Source: a bacterium (GTDB lineage: Bacteria > Patescibacteriota > Minisyncoccia > Phycocordibacterales > SBAW01). Taken from it: DNA of 64,000 bases. Position 1 is the stretch's first letter. Each line of letters begins with the position of its first letter. Shown piece by piece: positions 21,540 through 33,749 of the stretch. The DNA is taken from the NCBI GenBank assembly GCA_021839985.1, contig JAKBZO010000001.1, forward strand, positions 676-64,675, written 5' to 3'. Made by a program: the position numbers and the translations under genes. Below the pieces are notes generated by a model, which had not been told where the DNA came from, did not search any database, and saw only the letters and a list, made by a program, of their open reading frames with translations.

Positions 21540-22253
21540 CTTGGCTAGCAACCTAAATTCTTTAAATCAGATACAATTAAAATATGTTTAAGAAAATATT
21601 CCTTTGGGCTTTTGATCTATACAAAAAACACAACATGGAACAGTACTACCTCCAAGGCAAAGCTTGGGGGCGTAAGGACCATAACGAGGATATTGTTCGG
21701 GCAATGGACCTGGTCTCTGACCGGCATTACAGACGATGTCTGGATGTAGGCGCCGGGTTGGGACACTACAGCGAGTATGCAGCAAAAATATGCGATGAGG
21801 TGGTTGCGACGGATATTTCAAGCGTAGCGATAGGATGGGCACAAAACCGTCTCCGCCACTTTAAAAACATACGATTTGAAGTAAAAAATCTTAGAGACGC
21901 TAGTGCTTCATGGGGGGGGTTCGATCTTATAATTTTAGCTGAAGTTCTCTATTATCTCGGCGACGAGCGATTCCCGGTTGACTTCAAGAAATTGCTTCGA
22001 CGGATAACCGATCTGGTACAAGAGAAAGGCCGCATTTTGCTCGTCAATTACGTATCGCCGGGACGGAATGAAGAACAACTCCGATCGTACGTAAATGATT
22101 TTGTCAAAATGGGCCTTTCTCTTGAAAAGAACGAGACGATCAAGGTTGGCCAAAAAACATTTCTTGCCGCAGTGTTGCGGAAATAATGTTATTCGCCGAC
22201 CTCGAACAGATTATATTAATGATCACTTTGGGGCGACTACAGGGATCGGTCAC
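21540..22253. mobile_element. AT-rich islet carrying the methyltransferase gene, bounded by atcggtcac repeats and ending at a degenerate copy of the tRNA-His 3' end
   Basis: atcggtcac occurs at 21505-21513 and 22245-22253. The sequence tggggcgactacaggga at 22229-22245 copies the tRNA-His 3' end at 22438-22455 (16 of 17 nt). Confidence 0.35.
21584..22186 (+). CDS. Class I SAM-dependent methyltransferase, located in an AT-rich islet
   Basis: The motif I LDVGAGLGHYS sits within a Rossmann fold. Local composition is markedly AT-richer than the flanking sequence. Confidence 0.6.
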   Translation: MFKKIFLWAFDLYKKHNMEQYYLQGKAWGRKDHNEDIVRAMDLVSDRHYRRCLDVGAGLGHYSEYAAKICDEVVATDISSVAIGWAQNRLRHFKNIRFEVKNLRDASASWGGFDLIILAEVLYYLGDERFPVDFKKLLRRITDLVQEKGRILLVNYVSPGRNEEQLRSYVNDFVKMGLSLEKNETIKVGQKTFLAAVLRK

Positions 22254-22437
22254 TCTCGTGGGTTTTTGCTTTGCTCTGCGAGCTCACAAAAACCTCACTC
22301 GCTCGACCCCCACCCGCCGCCTCCGCTCATTCGCTTCGCTCATGAACGGGCTTCGCGGCGGCTTGGTTCGATTCCCTGTAGTCGGCCCAGGAATATATCC
22401 TCGGCGCTCCGCACCTACGTCTTATTCTGGGCGACTA

Positions 22438-22512
22438 CAGGGAATCGAACCCTGATTGCGAGTTCCACAAACTCGAGTGTTAACCGTTACACCATAGTCG
22501 CCATACTACACA
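22438..22512 (-). tRNA. tRNA-His (anticodon GTG) with G-1
   Basis: The reverse complement folds as a cloverleaf with the anticodon loop tt-GTG-ga and the T-loop ggttcgattcc. The 3' end is ...tagtcgccca. Confidence 0.8.
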
Positions 22513-22518
22513 GGAAGC

Positions 22519-22555
22519 CGGAAGCCTCGTGCTTCCGGCTTCCTGTGTCTTGTGC
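22519..22555. terminator. Hairpin between tRNA-Leu and tRNA-His
   Basis: acaggaagccggaagcctcgtgcttccggcttcctgt is a perfect 15-bp stem. Confidence 0.45.
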
Positions 22556-22563
22556 CCAGGAGA

Positions 22564-22647
22564 GGATTCGAACCTCCATAGGATTGCTCCCGCTACCACC
22601 TCAAGGTAGTGCGTCTAGCCAATTTCGCCACCTGGGCAACTGTTGTT
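22564..22647 (-). tRNA. tRNA-Leu (anticodon GAG), long variable arm
   Basis: The reverse complement reads gcccaggtggcgaaattggctagacgcactacc-ttGAGgt-ggtagcgggagcaatcctatggaggttcgaatcctctcctgggca. Confidence 0.8.
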
Positions 22648-23367
22648 CAAACCTGCCATCCTCAAGACACGGTCGACCTTCATTCGCTTACGTGACAGGC
22701 AGATAGCACTATTACCATAATATATTGAGGGCAATAACTCAAGGGATTCATGCTTCGCGTATTTCAACTGAAAGACCGTCCTATTTGCATTTTGTGTAAT
22801 ATGGCCATTAATGCCTAGTCGGCGCTTGATCTCCGTTCTTAGCCAGGAGATATGCTTTTTACTTGCGGAGGCAAAAACTGTATAGAACATAAAACTAGCT
22901 TCCCATCGCGAATCCATGTATGAGTAAAAACTGCCATCCCCGTCGAATGACCCTCGCAAGAAATCAAAGAAATATCTGTTGGGAATCTTTACTGCGCCAA
23001 TGGTCTTCGACTTTGCACCAGATATGCCGATTGAACATAAAAAATTATGGAACAAGGTATCGCTGAACTGAACGTGTCCGCACAGGTCGCCATTCCCATT
23101 GCTTTTGGTGCTTAACTTTACTTGTATATTCAGGCAGCGGCAAAAATTATCAAGCTGTTCTTCATCTTTTGAAGTCAATGTTACATGCCGGCCATCGACA
23201 GACACATAACCGTCTGTTGCCAACAACCCAAGAGCGTAGGCAAAATTAGCAGACCACTTGATCTCCACTTTTCCTTTCGGTTTCGGACCACGCTTCCCTA
23301 TAAACAAATAGTAGCACGGCTCAAGGTAATAGCGTCTACCAATTTGTGGTATTAAAAAGACCGGCAT
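22615..23367 (-). CDS. LAGLIDADG homing endonuclease (double-motif, free-standing) in an AT-rich islet
   Basis: Two LAGLIDADG motifs are present: FAYALGLLATDGYV and FLRGSFDGDGSF. The ORF's last ~33 nt overlap the 5' part of tRNA-Leu. Low GC. Confidence 0.75.
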   Translation of the reverse strand: MPVFLIPQIGRRYYLEPCYYLFIGKRGPKPKGKVEIKWSANFAYALGLLATDGYVSVDGRHVTLTSKDEEQLDNFCRCLNIQVKLSTKSNGNGDLCGHVQFSDTLFHNFLCSIGISGAKSKTIGAVKIPNRYFFDFLRGSFDGDGSFYSYMDSRWEASFMFYTVFASASKKHISWLRTEIKRRLGINGHITQNANRTVFQLKYAKHESLELLPSIYYGNSAICLSRKRMKVDRVLRMAGLNNSCPGGEIG

Positions 23368-25760: not shown

Positions 25761-27599
25761 TTACACGGTAATGATCTGATGCTCAACGAGGCGGCGGTAT
25801 GGTTCGCAGGTTTCCACGAGCTCTGCGTGCTTGCCCACGCCGACCATGCGGCCGCCATCCATCACGATGATCCGGTCCGCGTCACGCACGGTCGAAAGGC
25901 GGTGCGCGATGATAATGCCGGTGCGACCCTTGAGCGCTTCTCCCATCGCTTCGTGGATGATCGCTTCATTCTCGGCGTCAAGGTTGGAAGTGGCTTCGTC
26001 GAAGATGAGAATGTCGGGCTCCTGCAGAAGCGCTCGCGCGATGCCGACACGCTGGCGTTCGCCGCCGGAAAGCTTTACGCCGTTCTCGCCGATCAGCACG
26101 TCGAATCTTTTCTCACCGAGGCGATCATAGAATTGGTCGACGCGCGCCTTGCGCGAAACGTCATCAAGCTGCGCATCGGTGATCGTCTCAGGGTGCGCCG
26201 CAGCGAAGGTCATATTGTAGCGCAGCGCATTGTCGAACAGCTCGACTTGCTGCGGCACATAACCGACACGGCGCAGGAAACTCTGCTGGCTCACGTCGCG
26301 CAGATCATGCCCATCAACGAGAACACTGCCCTGATCCGGATCATACCCGCGCAACAGCAGGTGGACGATCGTGGTCTTGCCCGCACCGGAGTGCCCAACG
26401 ATCGCGGCGGTCTCCCCCGCCTCGATCGTGAACGACACATCGCGCAGGATCTCTTTGGACACGTCATCCTCTTCATTCCCCTCGCCAGCCGTTTCATCGT
26501 CGTCAGACGATACTTCTGGCGTGGCTTCGGCAGGCGCGATCGGATACGCGAACGAGACGTTGCGAAATTCGATGCGGCCGCTGATGCTTCCGAGCTCTAC
26601 CGCGCCAGCCTTGTCCTTCACCGCCGGCTCGCGATCAAGCGCATCGTGATAGATCTGAATATCAGAAAACTGCGTGATCATCTGCCGCTGCGCCCAGCCA
26701 AGATTGCCGACATTACCGAACACGCTCCCCATCCAGCCGATGAGCATCACGATCGAGCCGGGCGACTGCGCGCCGATCGAGACCAGATACACGCCGACCA
26801 TGAGCGCGAACACCTGTCCGAAGTAGATGAGCGTCGTGCGCCAGTAGTACGATGACAGATAATCGAACCAGATCGCCCGAGACGTTTGCGCCTTATCTTC
26901 GTACAACGTGTCATATTCGCGAACGATGGCGTCTTCTTTTGCCGAGAGTTTGATGACTTTTACATTGCGTAGCGCCTCGTTGAAATATTTCGACTGATCG
27001 TTCCATCGTTTGCGATTTTCTTTCATGGTCGGTAAGAACGTCGTGTTGTAGCGATACTGTGCCGCTACGTATATCAATGAGAAGAAGAGCACAACGCCGC
27101 CGAGTAAAGGACTTACGAATGTGATCGCAGCTGTCGCCAGAATGATCTGGAGCAAGAATGGCAGGAGCGAGTACACGCTCGTGTTGATGAATGCTATGAG
27201 CGCGTCACTGCCCTTATTCACCACCGAGAGGCGGAGGCCCGAATGTTCATTGATGTGTTGCCCAAGAGAAAAACGAAACACACGCTCCAGCGTGTGCGTC
27301 GCTATGAATTGCGGCATGCCGTAATCAAGATGCGCTTGCTCATATCGTTCGCGTAGGTAGTTGAGAATGTTGGCAACGAGATAGACGCCAAGGATGATGC
27401 CGCCGAGCATGAACGAATGTGAAAGCGGCGCGTGCGTGGCGAGATCGTCAATGATCTTACCCTGCAGATATGGAAGGAACAGAAAGAGCACTTGACCGCC
27501 GACCAGGAGCACGAACAAGATCGTGAGTATGCCGAAAAACGGCCGGTACAGCGTACGCAGCATGGCGAGCGGTTTGGTTTTTGGTGTTGTTTCAGTCAT
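25761..27599 (-). CDS. ABC transporter of the fused permease + ATPase (exporter type, MsbA/ABCB-like) kind
   Basis: A six-TM domain followed by Walker A GHSGAGKTT, the signature LSGGERQRVGIARAL and Walker B ILIFDEATSNLD. An acidic insert EATPEVSSDDDETAGEGNEEDD is present. Confidence 0.85.
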   Translation of the reverse strand: MTETTPKTKPLAMLRTLYRPFFGILTILFVLLVGGQVLFLFLPYLQGKIIDDLATHAPLSHSFMLGGIILGVYLVANILNYLRERYEQAHLDYGMPQFIATHTLERVFRFSLGQHINEHSGLRLSVVNKGSDALIAFINTSVYSLLPFLLQIILATAAITFVSPLLGGVVLFFSLIYVAAQYRYNTTFLPTMKENRKRWNDQSKYFNEALRNVKVIKLSAKEDAIVREYDTLYEDKAQTSRAIWFDYLSSYYWRTTLIYFGQVFALMVGVYLVSIGAQSPGSIVMLIGWMGSVFGNVGNLGWAQRQMITQFSDIQIYHDALDREPAVKDKAGAVELGSISGRIEFRNVSFAYPIAPAEATPEVSSDDDETAGEGNEEDDVSKEILRDVSFTIEAGETAAIVGHSGAGKTTIVHLLLRGYDPDQGSVLVDGHDLRDVSQQSFLRRVGYVPQQVELFDNALRYNMTFAAAHPETITDAQLDDVSRKARVDQFYDRLGEKRFDVLIGENGVKLSGGERQRVGIARALLQEPDILIFDEATSNLDAENEAIIHEAMGEALKGRTGIIIAHRLSTVRDADRIIVMDGGRMVGVGKHAELVETCEPYRRLVEHQIITV

Positions 27600-27637
27600 A
27601 AATCATGAGTGGGGGTGCACGCTGTAGGACTCGGCCA

Positions 27638-27726
27638 AGCGCTCGCTCGTCGCCGTCGCTCCTCGCTCCGCTCGGCCCTGCTCGCGCGACCCAGTCTGCT
27701 GACTGGGTGCCCGCGCTCGCTTTCGA
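27638..27726. repeat. Copy 1 of a ~90-nt structured repeat (CGCTC-rich arm plus a hairpin with covarying stem)
   Basis: aagcgctcgctcgtcgccgtcgctcctcgctccgctcggccctgctcgcgcgaccc-agtctgctgactgg-gtgcccgcgctcgctttcg. The second copy at 32739-32837 differs mainly by compensatory changes in the inner stem. Confidence 0.6.
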
Positions 27727-27800
27727 GCCCCTCAGGGTGCACAAAATTAAGCTCCGATACGCTCACGCGTATCGGAGCTTAATTTTGTGCACCCTGAGGG
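27724..27800. repeat. Long palindrome (~37-bp arms) made of the tRNA-Val 3' end plus a trailer and their inverted copy
   Basis: gagcccctcagggtgcacaaaattaagctccgatacg-ctcacg-cgtatcggagcttaattttgtgcaccctgaggggctc. Confidence 0.6.
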
Positions 27801-27860
27801 GCTCGAACCCCCGACCTTCTCAGTGTAAATGAGTTGCTCTACCAACTGAGCTAAGGGTGC
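27788..27860 (-). tRNA. tRNA-Val (anticodon TAC)
   Basis: The reverse complement reads gcacccttagctcagttggtagagcaactca-ttTACac-tgagaaggtcgggggttcgagcccctcagggtgca. Confidence 0.8.
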
Positions 27861-28065
27861 AAAAACATACCGCGAACACCGCTAAATTTACAATAAAAAC
27901 TTGTGTTGAGCAATGTTTTTCGTTCGTTTGTGCCCTCGGGAGGGATGATCCCGCAGTTACTAACTCGCTTGTTCGTGCTGCGCACTCCAAGCCCGTAAGT
28001 ACTGCTGGACGCGGCTCGCTATTTTGCTCGCCGAGGGCGCTCGCAAAATATGCTCCGCCGGTTCG

Positions 28066-28092
28066 ATTCCTCCCGCACGCAAAGCAGTTTGC
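28066..28092. repeat. Hairpin gcacgcaaa-gcagt-tttgcgtgc; the same stem with an inverted loop recurs at 33604-33631
   Basis: Both copies are followed by ctccg(g/a)g. Both lie about 40-70 nt 3' of a minus-strand tRNA-Arg gene. Confidence 0.5.
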
Positions 28093-28127
28093 GTGCTCCG
28101 GGGGCACACACTCACTACGTTCGTTTG

Positions 28128-28199
28128 TGCCCCCACGAGGAATCGAACCTCGATCAGCGGCTTAGAAGTCCGCAGTTTTATCCATTAAACTACAGGGGC
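28128..28199 (-). tRNA. tRNA-Arg (anticodon TCT)
   Basis: The reverse complement reads gcccctgtagtttaatggataaaactgcgga-ctTCTaa-gccgctgatcgaggttcgattcctcgtgggggca, with one A-G mismatch at the base of the anticodon stem. Confidence 0.7.
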
Positions 28200-28503
28200 T
28201 TTTAGTCTTTCCAAAACATCCTAATTGTATATAGGTCTTTCTTCTGTGACAATTTGCGCACCTTACCTCACATTTTTCCGTCTCCGCCAAAACGGATCCC
28301 CAGGAATAATGTCCTGACAGCATTTGTGATGCTTTCTTAAATTTTACGGAGGGGACCACGTGGTCAAAGTCTAACACGATAGGATCACTCTCCCCACAAT
28401 CAACACATTTTTTTGTAGAAAGCAGGGCCAACAACTTTTCTCTGACACGTATGCGGTGTCTTTTTTGAGCGGCGTATAAATCCTCTTTCTTTTTATAGGG
28501 CAC
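28162..28503 (-). CDS. Small HNH endonuclease in an AT-rich islet; its 3' end overlaps the tRNA-Arg(TCT) 5' half
   Basis: The HNH motif is CVDCGESDPIVLDFDHVVP...CANCHRRKT. The segment 28200-28500 is low in GC. Confidence 0.7.
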   Translation of the reverse strand: MPYKKKEDLYAAQKRHRIRVREKLLALLSTKKCVDCGESDPIVLDFDHVVPSVKFKKASQMLSGHYSWGSVLAETEKCEVRCANCHRRKTYIQLGCFGKTKSPCSLMDKTADF

Positions 28504-32269: not shown

Positions 32270-32706
32270 TCGTGCGCTCCGGTCGAGTTCATTCTATCAA
32301 GGAAGCTCTGCAATATCACGGCTGCGGCTGACGCGTCGAGTTTTTCTTGAGCGGATGCTCCCTGCTTGCGAGCGTTGCGCGGATGTTCTCCTCGCCCGAC
32401 ACGCGAAGCCTGCGCGCTTGTCATGAACTCTGGCTCGAAGATGATCGGGGTGCCTGCCGCTCGGCCAAGTGCGTCAGCGAACGAGCGGACCCGCGCCATG
32501 ACCGGATTGTCGCGGCCGGAGAGATCTTTCGATTCGCCGATCACGAACGCTTTCGCCTCTCGCTCGCGCGCGAGCGCCGATGCACGTGCAAGCGCATCTT
32601 TCTCACTGGCCACTTCAAGCGGAAATGCGACGCGGTCTCCCTCGTCGGACACGGCGAGTCCTACACGCTTGGTTCCATAATCGATACCGATATACATATG
32701 ATTCAT
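32266..32706 (-). CDS. ruvX: Holliday-junction resolvase-like protein RuvX/YqgF
   Basis: YIGIDYGTKRVGLAVSD is the YqgF N-terminal signature. The true start is probably MYIGID (32697). Confidence 0.85.
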   Translation of the reverse strand: MNHMYIGIDYGTKRVGLAVSDEGDRVAFPLEVASEKDALARASALAREREAKAFVIGESKDLSGRDNPVMARVRSFADALGRAAGTPIIFEPEFMTSAQASRVGRGEHPRNARKQGASAQEKLDASAAAVILQSFLDRMNSTGAHE

Positions 32707-32738
32707 TCCCAGAAATGCGGATGGGGTGAGATTCGGCT

Positions 32739-32837
32739 AAGCGCTCGCTCGTCGCCGTCGCTCCTCGCTCCGCTCAGCCCTACTCGCGCGACCCGCCGTG
32801 CTCGGCGGGTGCCCGCGCTCGCCTTCGGATCTCACCC
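32739..32837. repeat. Copy 2 of the ~90-nt structured repeat, preceded at 32716-32736 by a 20-nt direct copy of the tRNA-Ser 3' end
   Basis: Identical to copy 1 over aagcgctcgctcgtcgccgtcgctcctcgctccgctc and ctcgcgcgaccc...gtgcccgcgctcgc. The inner stem is gccgtgctcggcgg here versus agtctgctgactgg in copy 1. The sequence tgcggatggggtgagattcg is repeated at 32716 and 32892. Confidence 0.6.
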
Positions 32838-32891
32838 AATCGCGCAATGGCAATCTTCAAATAGTCGCGGGGACTGTTTGAACGAGCCACC

Positions 32892-32979
32892 TGCGGATGG
32901 GGTGAGATTCGAACTCACGACACCTTGCGGTGTGGCGGTTTTCAAGACCGCTGCCTTAGACCACTCGGCCACCCATCCA
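32892..32979 (-). tRNA. tRNA-Ser (anticodon TGA), long variable arm
   Basis: The reverse complement reads ggatgggtggccgagtggtctaaggcagcggt-ctTGAaa-accgccacaccgcaaggtgtcgtgagttcgaatctcaccccatccgca. Confidence 0.8.
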
Positions 32980-33102
32980 GTACCATACAACTTACAACAA
33001 AAGTGGCCTTGTTGGAAGCGACACGCATCTTCCCATGAAGAAGGTGCGACATTCTTCGTGCTCGATCACACTGCTTAAGATTTTGTTTGATATACTTAAC
33101 GC

Positions 33103-33597: not shown

Positions 33598-33677
33598 TCT
33601 GGAGCGCACGCAAACTGCTTTGCGTGCTCCGAGAGGGTAAGCGAAAAAAGCGCTCGTTGCGCTCTTTTTCGTACTTG

Positions 33678-33749
33678 TCCTCTCGGTAGGAATCGAACCT
33701 ACATTACAAGCTCCGCAAGCTTGCGTTCTATCCATTGAACTACGAGAGG
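33678..33749 (-). tRNA. tRNA-Arg (anticodon GCG)
   Basis: The reverse complement reads cctctcgtagttcaatggatagaacgcaagc-ttGCGga-gcttgtaatgtaggttcgattcctaccgagagg. It is followed on the minus strand by the hairpin terminator agcgaaaaaagcgctcgttgcgctctttttcg (33640-33672). Confidence 0.8.

Follow-up and report, generated by a model that had tools for sequence, protein, structure and literature searches.

Structured, protein-less units linked to tRNA 3' ends in Patescibacteria: a widespread, apparently undescribed family of probable insertion elements

Patescibacteria have tiny genomes in which very few mobile elements have been recognized. Among the described systems closest to the one presented here, integron attC sites and the attP(+) hairpin of CTX phage reportedly act as folded single-stranded recombination sites, and islands and prophages are said to be integrated in tRNA genes at the T-loop sublocation. 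MITEs carry terminal inverted repeats that are common to their copies, together with a short target duplication of fixed length. In E. coli, the tyrT-linked repeats with their RtT RNA (Rfam RF00391) lie directly behind a tRNA whose final ~19 nt each of them carries, and they give rise to a released RNA (bioRxiv 10.1101/2024.07.17.603846). The nearest paper describes group I introns in Patescibacteria tRNA genes, which occupy the anticodon loop only. Our literature search returned no description of structured units linked to tRNA ends, and the family of probable insertion elements described below is widespread and apparently undescribed.

Repeat finding across the window, by which we mean the whole 64-kb stretch of DNA that was analyzed, part of a metagenome-assembled genome of the Patescibacteria (Paceibacterota), returned a single long repeat, a two-copy family of 98 nt (27628-27725 and 32730-32827) with 87% identity. 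An earlier note on this DNA had reported two similar structured copies, about 85% identical. The covariance model described below puts them at 27631-27726 and 32733-32828; of the two intervals given in the note, the second (32739-32837) is shifted by ~10 nt. When the copies are aligned on the minus strand, 8 of the ~13 differences fall inside one hairpin-tip segment, at the tip of helix P1, which reads ACCC-AGTC-AGCA-GACT-GGGT in one copy and ACCC-GCCG-AGCA-CGGC-GGGT in the other. Both sides of all four tip pairs are swapped, the AGCA loop is unchanged, and pairing is retained, in agreement with the claim that the differences concentrate in one covarying hairpin. The placement of each copy between a tRNA gene and the next start codon was also borne out, since both lie 3' of a minus-strand tRNA (Val and Ser) and upstream of a minus-strand start codon.

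The ~90-nt repeat forms part of a larger protein-less unit of ~170 to 200 nt that lies behind tRNA genes; it is the core of this unit, conserved in sequence and folded into two hairpins. Read along the minus strand, the unit follows the order tRNA, hairpin E1, X', core (helices P1 and P2), and distal X, where X is a direct copy of tRNA positions 56 to 73 (extending to about position 74) and X' is an inverted copy of positions 54 to 72 or 73. X' pairs with the distal X to give a three-way junction (P0/P1/P2) on the tRNA-sense strand, and the closing helix of this junction reproduces the acceptor/T-stem helix of the neighboring tRNA. The tRNA is left intact at each insertion. One option in the earlier note, that the repeat is the structured core of tRNA-associated islets, was essentially correct; the flanking inverted and direct copies of the neighboring tRNA 3' end, and the insertion-like behavior of the units, had been overlooked.

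Units follow five of the eight tRNAs of the window, all on the minus strand. The tRNA-Val(tac) gene (27787-27860; called by ARAGORN and Rfam), with its proximal X (positions 56 to 73) at 27788-27805, is followed by E1 (27742-27787), a 21-bp hairpin with a 4-nt loop, and by X' (27722-27741), an exact reverse complement of tRNA-Val positions 54 to 73. Core A (27634-27721) comes next, and then the distal X (27616-27633), a diverged copy (CGAGTCCTACAGCGTGCA) that pairs with X' and lies 16 nt ahead of the ABC-exporter ATG (27599). Within this core, P1 (27680-27720) combines a conserved stem and a GGC bulge with a tip of 4 bp that varies, and P2 (27633-27677) has the base GGCCGAGCG/CGCTTGGCC, a helix with tandem G.A pairs, and a GACG loop. 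X, E1, and X' together make a perfect 41-bp inverted repeat (27722-27762/27767-27807). A perfect palindrome of this kind resembles a snap-back product, which would be in keeping with an assembly or amplification artifact (a snap-back chimera). However, the Val unit, palindrome included, is identical in three independent assemblies, and it is therefore not an assembly artifact. The earlier note had named neutral duplication as the explanation should no further covarying copies exist, but dozens of diverged, compensatorily changed copies were found in unrelated metagenomes. We consider artifact and neutral recent duplication alike to be practically negligible.

The second core-A unit lies behind tRNA-Ser(tga) (32893-32978; ARAGORN and Rfam), with proximal X at 32894-32911, the E1 hairpin at 32847-32893, X' at 32824-32846 (inverted relative to the tRNA-Ser 3' end, from which it differs by a few mismatches), core A at 32736-32823, and a distal X at 32718-32735 that is identical to tRNA-Ser positions 56 to 73 at 18 of 18 nucleotides. 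In the Val and Ser units alike, E1 measures 46 to 47 nt and the core 88 nt. Start-codon annotation beside the units is ambiguous: the database RuvX (P0001, 143 amino acids) starts at ATG 32697, and the longest open reading frame (ORF) (146 amino acids) starts at 32706, 11 nt past the distal X. Long spurious ORFs also run through tRNA and element on either strand, at 32347-33078 (+) and 27605-27832 (+) in the window and in metagenomic loci L015, L019, L024, L033, L036, and L039. They cluster as a false "protein family" and have probably given rise to hypothetical proteins in annotated CPR genomes that do not exist.

The three remaining units carry other cores. Behind tRNA-His (22429-22501) lies a unit with core B (22232-22429), made up of E1 (22389-22429), X' (22367-22388), core B (22249-22366), and a distal X (22232-22248), its direct repeat showing one mismatch to the tRNA-His 3' end. 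This is the "degenerate relative" of the earlier note, which is real and belongs to a different core type with the same architecture, not to core A. The unit behind tRNA-Arg(tct) (28127-28199) carries core C (27931-28127). Its E1 (28107-28127) is followed by the acceptor part of X' (28096-28106), an internal hairpin (28076-28095), the T-arm part of X' (28062-28075), core C (27949-28061), and the distal X (27931-27948), and this additional 8-bp hairpin of core-C units sits exactly at the boundary between the acceptor and T-arm parts of X'. Behind tRNA-Arg(gcg) (33677-33749), a truncated unit (33607-33677) retains E1 (33638-33677), the acceptor part of X' (33627-33637), and the internal hairpin (33607-33626), and breaks off at the end of the neighboring gene. 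The internal hairpins at 28076-28095 and 33607-33626 are exact reverse complements of each other (CACGCAAA-CTGC-TTTGCGTG versus CACGCAAA-GCAG-TTTGCGTG); both orientations thus occur at the same structural position. Cores A, B, and C are unrelated in sequence and share the same architecture.

Other features of the tRNA islets were noted along the way. The trailer of tRNA-Leu(gag), directly before tRNA-His, contains a perfect 18-bp hairpin (22503-22545, minus strand; ACACAGGAAGCCGGAAGC/GCTTCCGGCTTCCTGTGT) with neither an inverted tRNA copy nor a core. An ORF with a LAGLIDADG_3 domain (22615-23367, minus strand) ends inside the 5' end of the same tRNA-Leu(gag) gene (22552-22637). It is absent from the sister lineage (L008), and two metagenome contigs, unrelated to each other, have homologs immediately 5' of tRNA-Leu(cag) (L010, 5351-6049; L026, 322-972). 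The ORF resembles a free-standing gene of the homing-endonuclease-like type that is associated with tRNA-Leu.

Core A is not confined to the window. A pattern scan of metagenomes (GCGGGCACCC-N(8-16)-GGGTCGCGCGAG) returned 37 loci, of which ~28 were true copies, all with a 12-nt gap. A covariance model (R1) built from 28 unique core-A copies, the kind of search that the earlier note had proposed, gave 38 matches, including copies outside the search pattern in L015 (tRNA-Trp) and L021 (tRNA-Met), and brought scan and model together to ~34 distinct core-A copies. Nearly all of them lie 70 to 110 nt behind a tRNA on the same strand, at least 19 tRNA isoacceptors are represented, and the units are co-oriented with, and directly behind, the tRNA in all cases. 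Tandem units occur in L017, L027, and L025, and in L030 and L021 a second core is nested 7 nt into a distal X. Such tandem, nested, and truncated copies are as expected of decaying selfish DNA. A scan of GTDB representative genomes for core B found it in the sister lineage only. At the gathering score, Rfam reported only the eight tRNAs in the window; at E<=10 over 27560-28220, it added only spurious hairpin (miRNA) matches on the palindrome, with no ribozyme or riboswitch.

The junctions are constant. In all copies, the distal X begins at C56, directly after the ...CTTGGC of the core, and X' ends in ...TCGAA, the complement of T54 to A58. The direct repeat stops 1 to 4 nt past the discriminator. 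In L022 and L026, the encoded CCA is kept in the distal copy, and the tRNA itself now ends in CAA, which derives from E1. Two other origins of X' were considered and rejected. A primer-binding site for mature tRNA does not fit, as the sequence into which X' continues is complementary to the genomic trailer (TTG...), not to CCA, and a degenerate tandem 5' half of a tRNA does not fit either, as the T-loop part is the reverse complement (CTCGAA or AATCGAA) and not TTCGAG.

The direct repeat recalls islands integrated at tRNA T-loops, in that the insert is flanked by a copy of the tRNA 3' end that starts in the T-loop and stops shortly after the discriminator (18/18 for tRNA-Ser, one mismatch for tRNA-His) and the tRNA remains intact. 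The units might then be relics or passengers of tRNA-integrating islands, produced by a tyrosine integrase acting at the T-loop, with core and E1 as attP arms that were mobilized in trans or left behind after deletion. The repeat starts and stops where integrase att sites do (C56 to just past the discriminator), and islands with cargo do occur at such sites. In L013 (620-1536, minus strand), tRNA-Ser and a core-A unit are separated by an island of ~790 nt that contains a NADAR/YbiA-like ORF and another, small ORF and is delimited by part of the tRNA end in a further copy (CCACCGCA); tRNA ends therefore also serve ordinary islands. A toxin-antitoxin insertion in the sister lineage (L006, 130-1430, orthologous to window ~33600-33677) points the same way: ~1.3 kb with a ribbon-helix-helix-like ORF and a PemK toxin gene lie behind tRNA-Arg(gcg), where the window has the truncated element alone. 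However, the units differ from islands in being ~190 nt long without an integrase, in having an extra inverted arm, for which an island offers no role, and in using one core for many tRNAs. No integrase gene or other ORF lies inside the 170- to 200-nt inserts, and none of the copies has an integrase beside it among the neighboring ORFs or by Pfam. More than 30 copies share the same junctions and size, which rules out products of random deletion. A single core type is used at no fewer than 19 different tRNAs, and near-identical cores carry different arms, unlike an element-borne attP. Searches of viral contigs, phages, and plasmids gave no matches to the elements. An origin from islands is thus quite improbable. 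The units do not conform to MITEs either, as their inverted arms differ from tRNA to tRNA and the repeat is 18 to 20 nt of tRNA.

The arms track the local tRNA. Among 54 tRNAs in the fetched loci, ~25 are followed, 40 to 75 nt downstream, by an inverted copy of the 3' end of the same tRNA, compared with ~1.3 expected by chance. Core B occurs behind tRNA-His in the window and behind tRNA-Arg(tct) in L006, with 97% identity over 133 nt, which is above the genome identity (~88%), and at both sites X' and X match the site's own tRNA with 1 to 2 mismatches each. A T-loop variant, TTCAAGT, is mirrored in both arms. In L049, from a more distant lineage, tRNA-Ser has a different acceptor stem, and the arms of its core-A unit match that stem. 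In many metagenomic copies, the direct repeat agrees with the tRNA 3' end over 15 nt without a mismatch. Imperfections are frequently more numerous in X' than in the distal X, especially in the acceptor part, which suggests that X' is partly inherited and not freshly copied. A related observation concerns tRNA-Arg(tct), which is only 85.5% identical between the window (28127-28199) and L006 (6354-6426) and has a remodeled acceptor stem; in the window, the distal X has kept the sequence type seen in the sister lineage, presumably the older one, and X' stands between the two.

The sister lineage, with a RuvX that is 90% identical and orthologous coding DNA that is 87 to 90% identical to the window genome, differs from the window at three tRNAs, and the units behave as insertions. 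Behind its tRNA-Ser, the ruvX ATG follows after 3 nt and there is no unit (two assemblies). The filled and empty sites also differ by a 19-nt versus 3-nt indel beside ruvX, and the right-hand boundary given for the tRNA-Ser unit is for that reason provisional. At tRNA-Arg(tct), the sister lineage has core B where the window has core C, and its tRNA-Val is followed by a C+B composite, in contrast to core A in the window. Another islet indel in the same lineage is a 145-amino-acid ORF (L006, 6713-7150, minus strand) between the Arg(tct) unit and tRNA-Val, which has no counterpart in the window. One further candidate, fold-back over the native trailer, was rejected, since the sequence after the distal X differs from that after the tRNA and the empty site lacks E1.

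The options named in the earlier note included a tRNA-trailer processing or terminator/antiterminator element. A cis-regulatory leader of the downstream gene, whether as terminator/antiterminator, as trailer-processing signal, or as promoter module, would suit the terminator-like E1 and the position of both window core-A copies, whose units end 11 to 20 nt ahead of a start codon. But the downstream contexts are unrelated or absent, and no conserved alternative pairing is tied to a gene. The tRNA-His unit faces a convergent methyltransferase gene, many metagenomic copies have terminator-like hairpins and not genes downstream, and ruvX in the sister lineage does without the element, all of which makes a leader or antiterminator role unlikely. 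We regard this explanation as very improbable and the link to start codons as incidental.

Folding energies were -78.1 kcal/mol (z = -5.0) for the Val unit and -75.3 kcal/mol (z = -4.45) for the Ser unit, and z-scores of the Val, Ser, His, and Arg(tct) units ranged from -4.5 to -8.5. RNAalifold, proposed in the earlier note for predicting the fold, recovered P1 and P2 by itself. In an alignment of 34 distinct core-A members that was fitted to the model, with part of P1 fixed by the search pattern, 90.4% of cells were paired (75.2% in shuffles), double changes occurred in 26 of 35 pairs, and the covariation score was 0.393, compared with 0.146 for shuffled alignments, none of 500 reaching 0.393, and 0.04 to 0.08 for slid-partner controls. 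This covariation and the RNAalifold fold sustain the claim that what is conserved is secondary structure and not a peptide. Unpaired features are conserved as well, namely, the GGC bulge in P1 and a bulged G in P2. P2 consists of G-C pairs that alternate with sheared G.A pairs in tandem (CGAG facing CGAG) beneath the GACG loop, and other family members show C-G to T-A and G-C to A-T exchanges in it. The richness in CGCTC/GAGCG remarked on in the note is present, and that stretch can now be read as this helix. A K-turn was rejected, since the tandem G.A pairs are not beside a 3-nt bulge and Rfam gave no match. In most copies, E1 is a hypervariable GC hairpin set between an A tract and a T tract, and it has a conserved GAG/GGCGAyTA internal loop that contains tandem G.A. 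Its T run pairs with the A tract, and a simple terminator scan flagged no window copy. An origin of E1 from hairpin telomeres or P nucleotides was rejected, loop-less palindromes being found at only 5 of 28 E1 centers. The non-Watson-Crick pairs in the helices are one-sided (58 G.T versus 10 A.C; 84 G.A versus 1 C.T). It follows that the tRNA-sense strand is the one that folds, whether in the form of RNA or of single-stranded DNA; in the window this is the minus strand, which the note had called the transcribed one.

Strong conservation of sequence and structure fits an RNA with a cellular function just as well as a mobile element. In the form that we considered, read-through from the tRNA promoter would yield a transcript in which the X'/X helix mimics the acceptor/T helix, RNase P and RNase Z would release a stable, tRNA-like three-way-junction RNA of ~140 to 160 nt that is useful to the host, and turnover of the DNA would be secondary. 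Covariation and invariant bulges indicate selection on the sense-strand fold, the unit is invariably co-oriented and immediately behind the tRNA, three unrelated cores keep the P0/P1/P2 design, the extra arm of core C at the acceptor/T-stem boundary makes the fold cloverleaf-like, and the distal X terminates at the discriminator plus 1 to 2 nt. The units resemble tmRNA, viral TLS, mascRNA, and YrlA in a closing helix that copies acceptor stem and T stem and ends at the discriminator base. They differ from these in having no T-loop or D-loop mimic and in an acceptor part that is frequently mismatched or decayed; the closing helix is a continuous 17 to 20 bp, and ARAGORN and the Rfam tRNA and tmRNA models called only the upstream tRNAs, with no tRNA-like domain in the units. 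Also against such an RNA, E1 resembles an intrinsic terminator and is placed before X', presence differs between sister lineages, and truncated copies exist. The tyrT repeats share with the units a position behind a tRNA whose 3' end they bear, but they lack an inverted arm, have another fold, and belong to one operon in enterobacteria, and the RF00391 model gave no match to the units at 27560-28220. A host-useful RNA is, on balance, unlikely, though it ranks as the strongest of the alternatives.

The units also resemble folded recombination sites. As in integron attC and CTX attP(+), a target copy, cargo, an inverted copy, a ~90-nt spacer, and a second target copy follow one another, structure is conserved above sequence, one strand is active and has conserved bulged bases, and the stem of a hairpin imitates the double-stranded target. 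Imperfect inverted repeats on one strand with conserved bulges, an attC trait, are present in the X'/X helix, in the GGC bulge of P1, and in the bulged G of P2. However, the boxes RYYYAAC ... GTTRRRY, intI/attI, and a dif context are absent, the arms are tRNA sequence, and no integrase was found among the neighbors. In those systems the stems are borne by the element and the target is fixed; in the units the stem varies with the tRNA, the target is a tRNA gene, and the "cargo" is a mere 20- to 47-nt hairpin.

Like IS200/IS605 PATEs and REP elements, the units are small, protein-less, and strand specific; they contain two hairpins, and terminal inverted repeats of fixed sequence are lacking. 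One of these hairpins, P1 or P2, is found at either end of the core. In almost all copies the core is flanked on its left by TCGAA, a short conserved motif that recalls the left flank of PATEs but is part of the copied T-loop. A further likeness to PATEs lies in the strand used, as the GC skew of the plus strand is negative, so that the sense strand of the units is the lagging-strand template. PATEs and REP elements differ in making neither a target duplication nor an inverted target copy, there is no sequence similarity, and no Y1 (HUH) transposase was seen within the 64-kb window. Retron msr/msd is similar insofar as terminal inverted repeats close a junction with one conserved and one long variable hairpin, but the arms of the units are tRNA derived, and no reverse transcriptase lies beside the window units, next to which are genes for an ABC exporter, RuvX, and a methyltransferase. 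A survey of 95 complete Patescibacteria genomes detected no group II introns, which would be a further source of reverse transcriptase (PMC13011429). Reverse transcription is unlikely. A defining feature was lacking in the comparisons with attC sites, tRNA-integrating islands, MITEs, retrons, tRNA-like genes, and RtT, and we have not filed the family under any of its nearest analogues.

The reading that we prefer, at a probability of roughly 60%, is that the units are non-autonomous mobile DNA aimed at the 3' ends of tRNA genes in Patescibacteria and spread through a folded single-stranded intermediate of the sense strand. The fold on the sense strand only suggests such a single-stranded intermediate. 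An enzyme supplied in trans would recognize the invariant features of the core and join the element in the T-loop, probably between T55 and C56, and the local tRNA would serve as the source from which the arms are made anew, either through target-templated synthesis or because the X-E1-X' quasi-palindrome is corrected. That the arms are produced from the target is suggested by the nearly identical cores that carry different arms, an arrangement that argues against a plain integrase/attP mechanism. Several points weigh against mobile DNA. No transposase, recombinase, or HUH nuclease was identified in the window or in neighboring ORFs: by Pfam, the window neighbors of the units are housekeeping genes only, and no enzyme recurs among the clustered neighboring ORFs of the fetched loci. 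Neither circle junctions nor an excised form were observed. Arms that depend on the tRNA are beyond the reach of simple site-specific recombination, an element-borne hairpin inside the X' of core C is unexpected from plain fold-back copying, and the poorer match of X', in the acceptor part especially, is not what fresh copying predicts.

More tentatively, and as a possibility that we hold with less than even confidence, the family may represent a new kind of gene-less mobile element, a folded single strand whose arms are rewritten from the target (positions 54 to 74) at each insertion or, equivalently, a tRNA-acceptor mimic that is tailored to its neighbor and processed by tRNA maturation. If so, it would represent an undescribed insertion chemistry aimed at the universally conserved T-loop of tRNA. 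Should the arms be re-templated on the target, they would point to an unknown route of DNA insertion at the tRNA T-loop, a sequence more conserved than any other in biology, and this route could be retargetable. Should the family act as RNA, it would constitute a large unannotated class of tRNA-linked structured RNAs. The covariance model is ready for a census, and either way the annotation of tRNA flanks, of overlapping spurious ORFs, and of downstream start regions in CPR genomes is affected.
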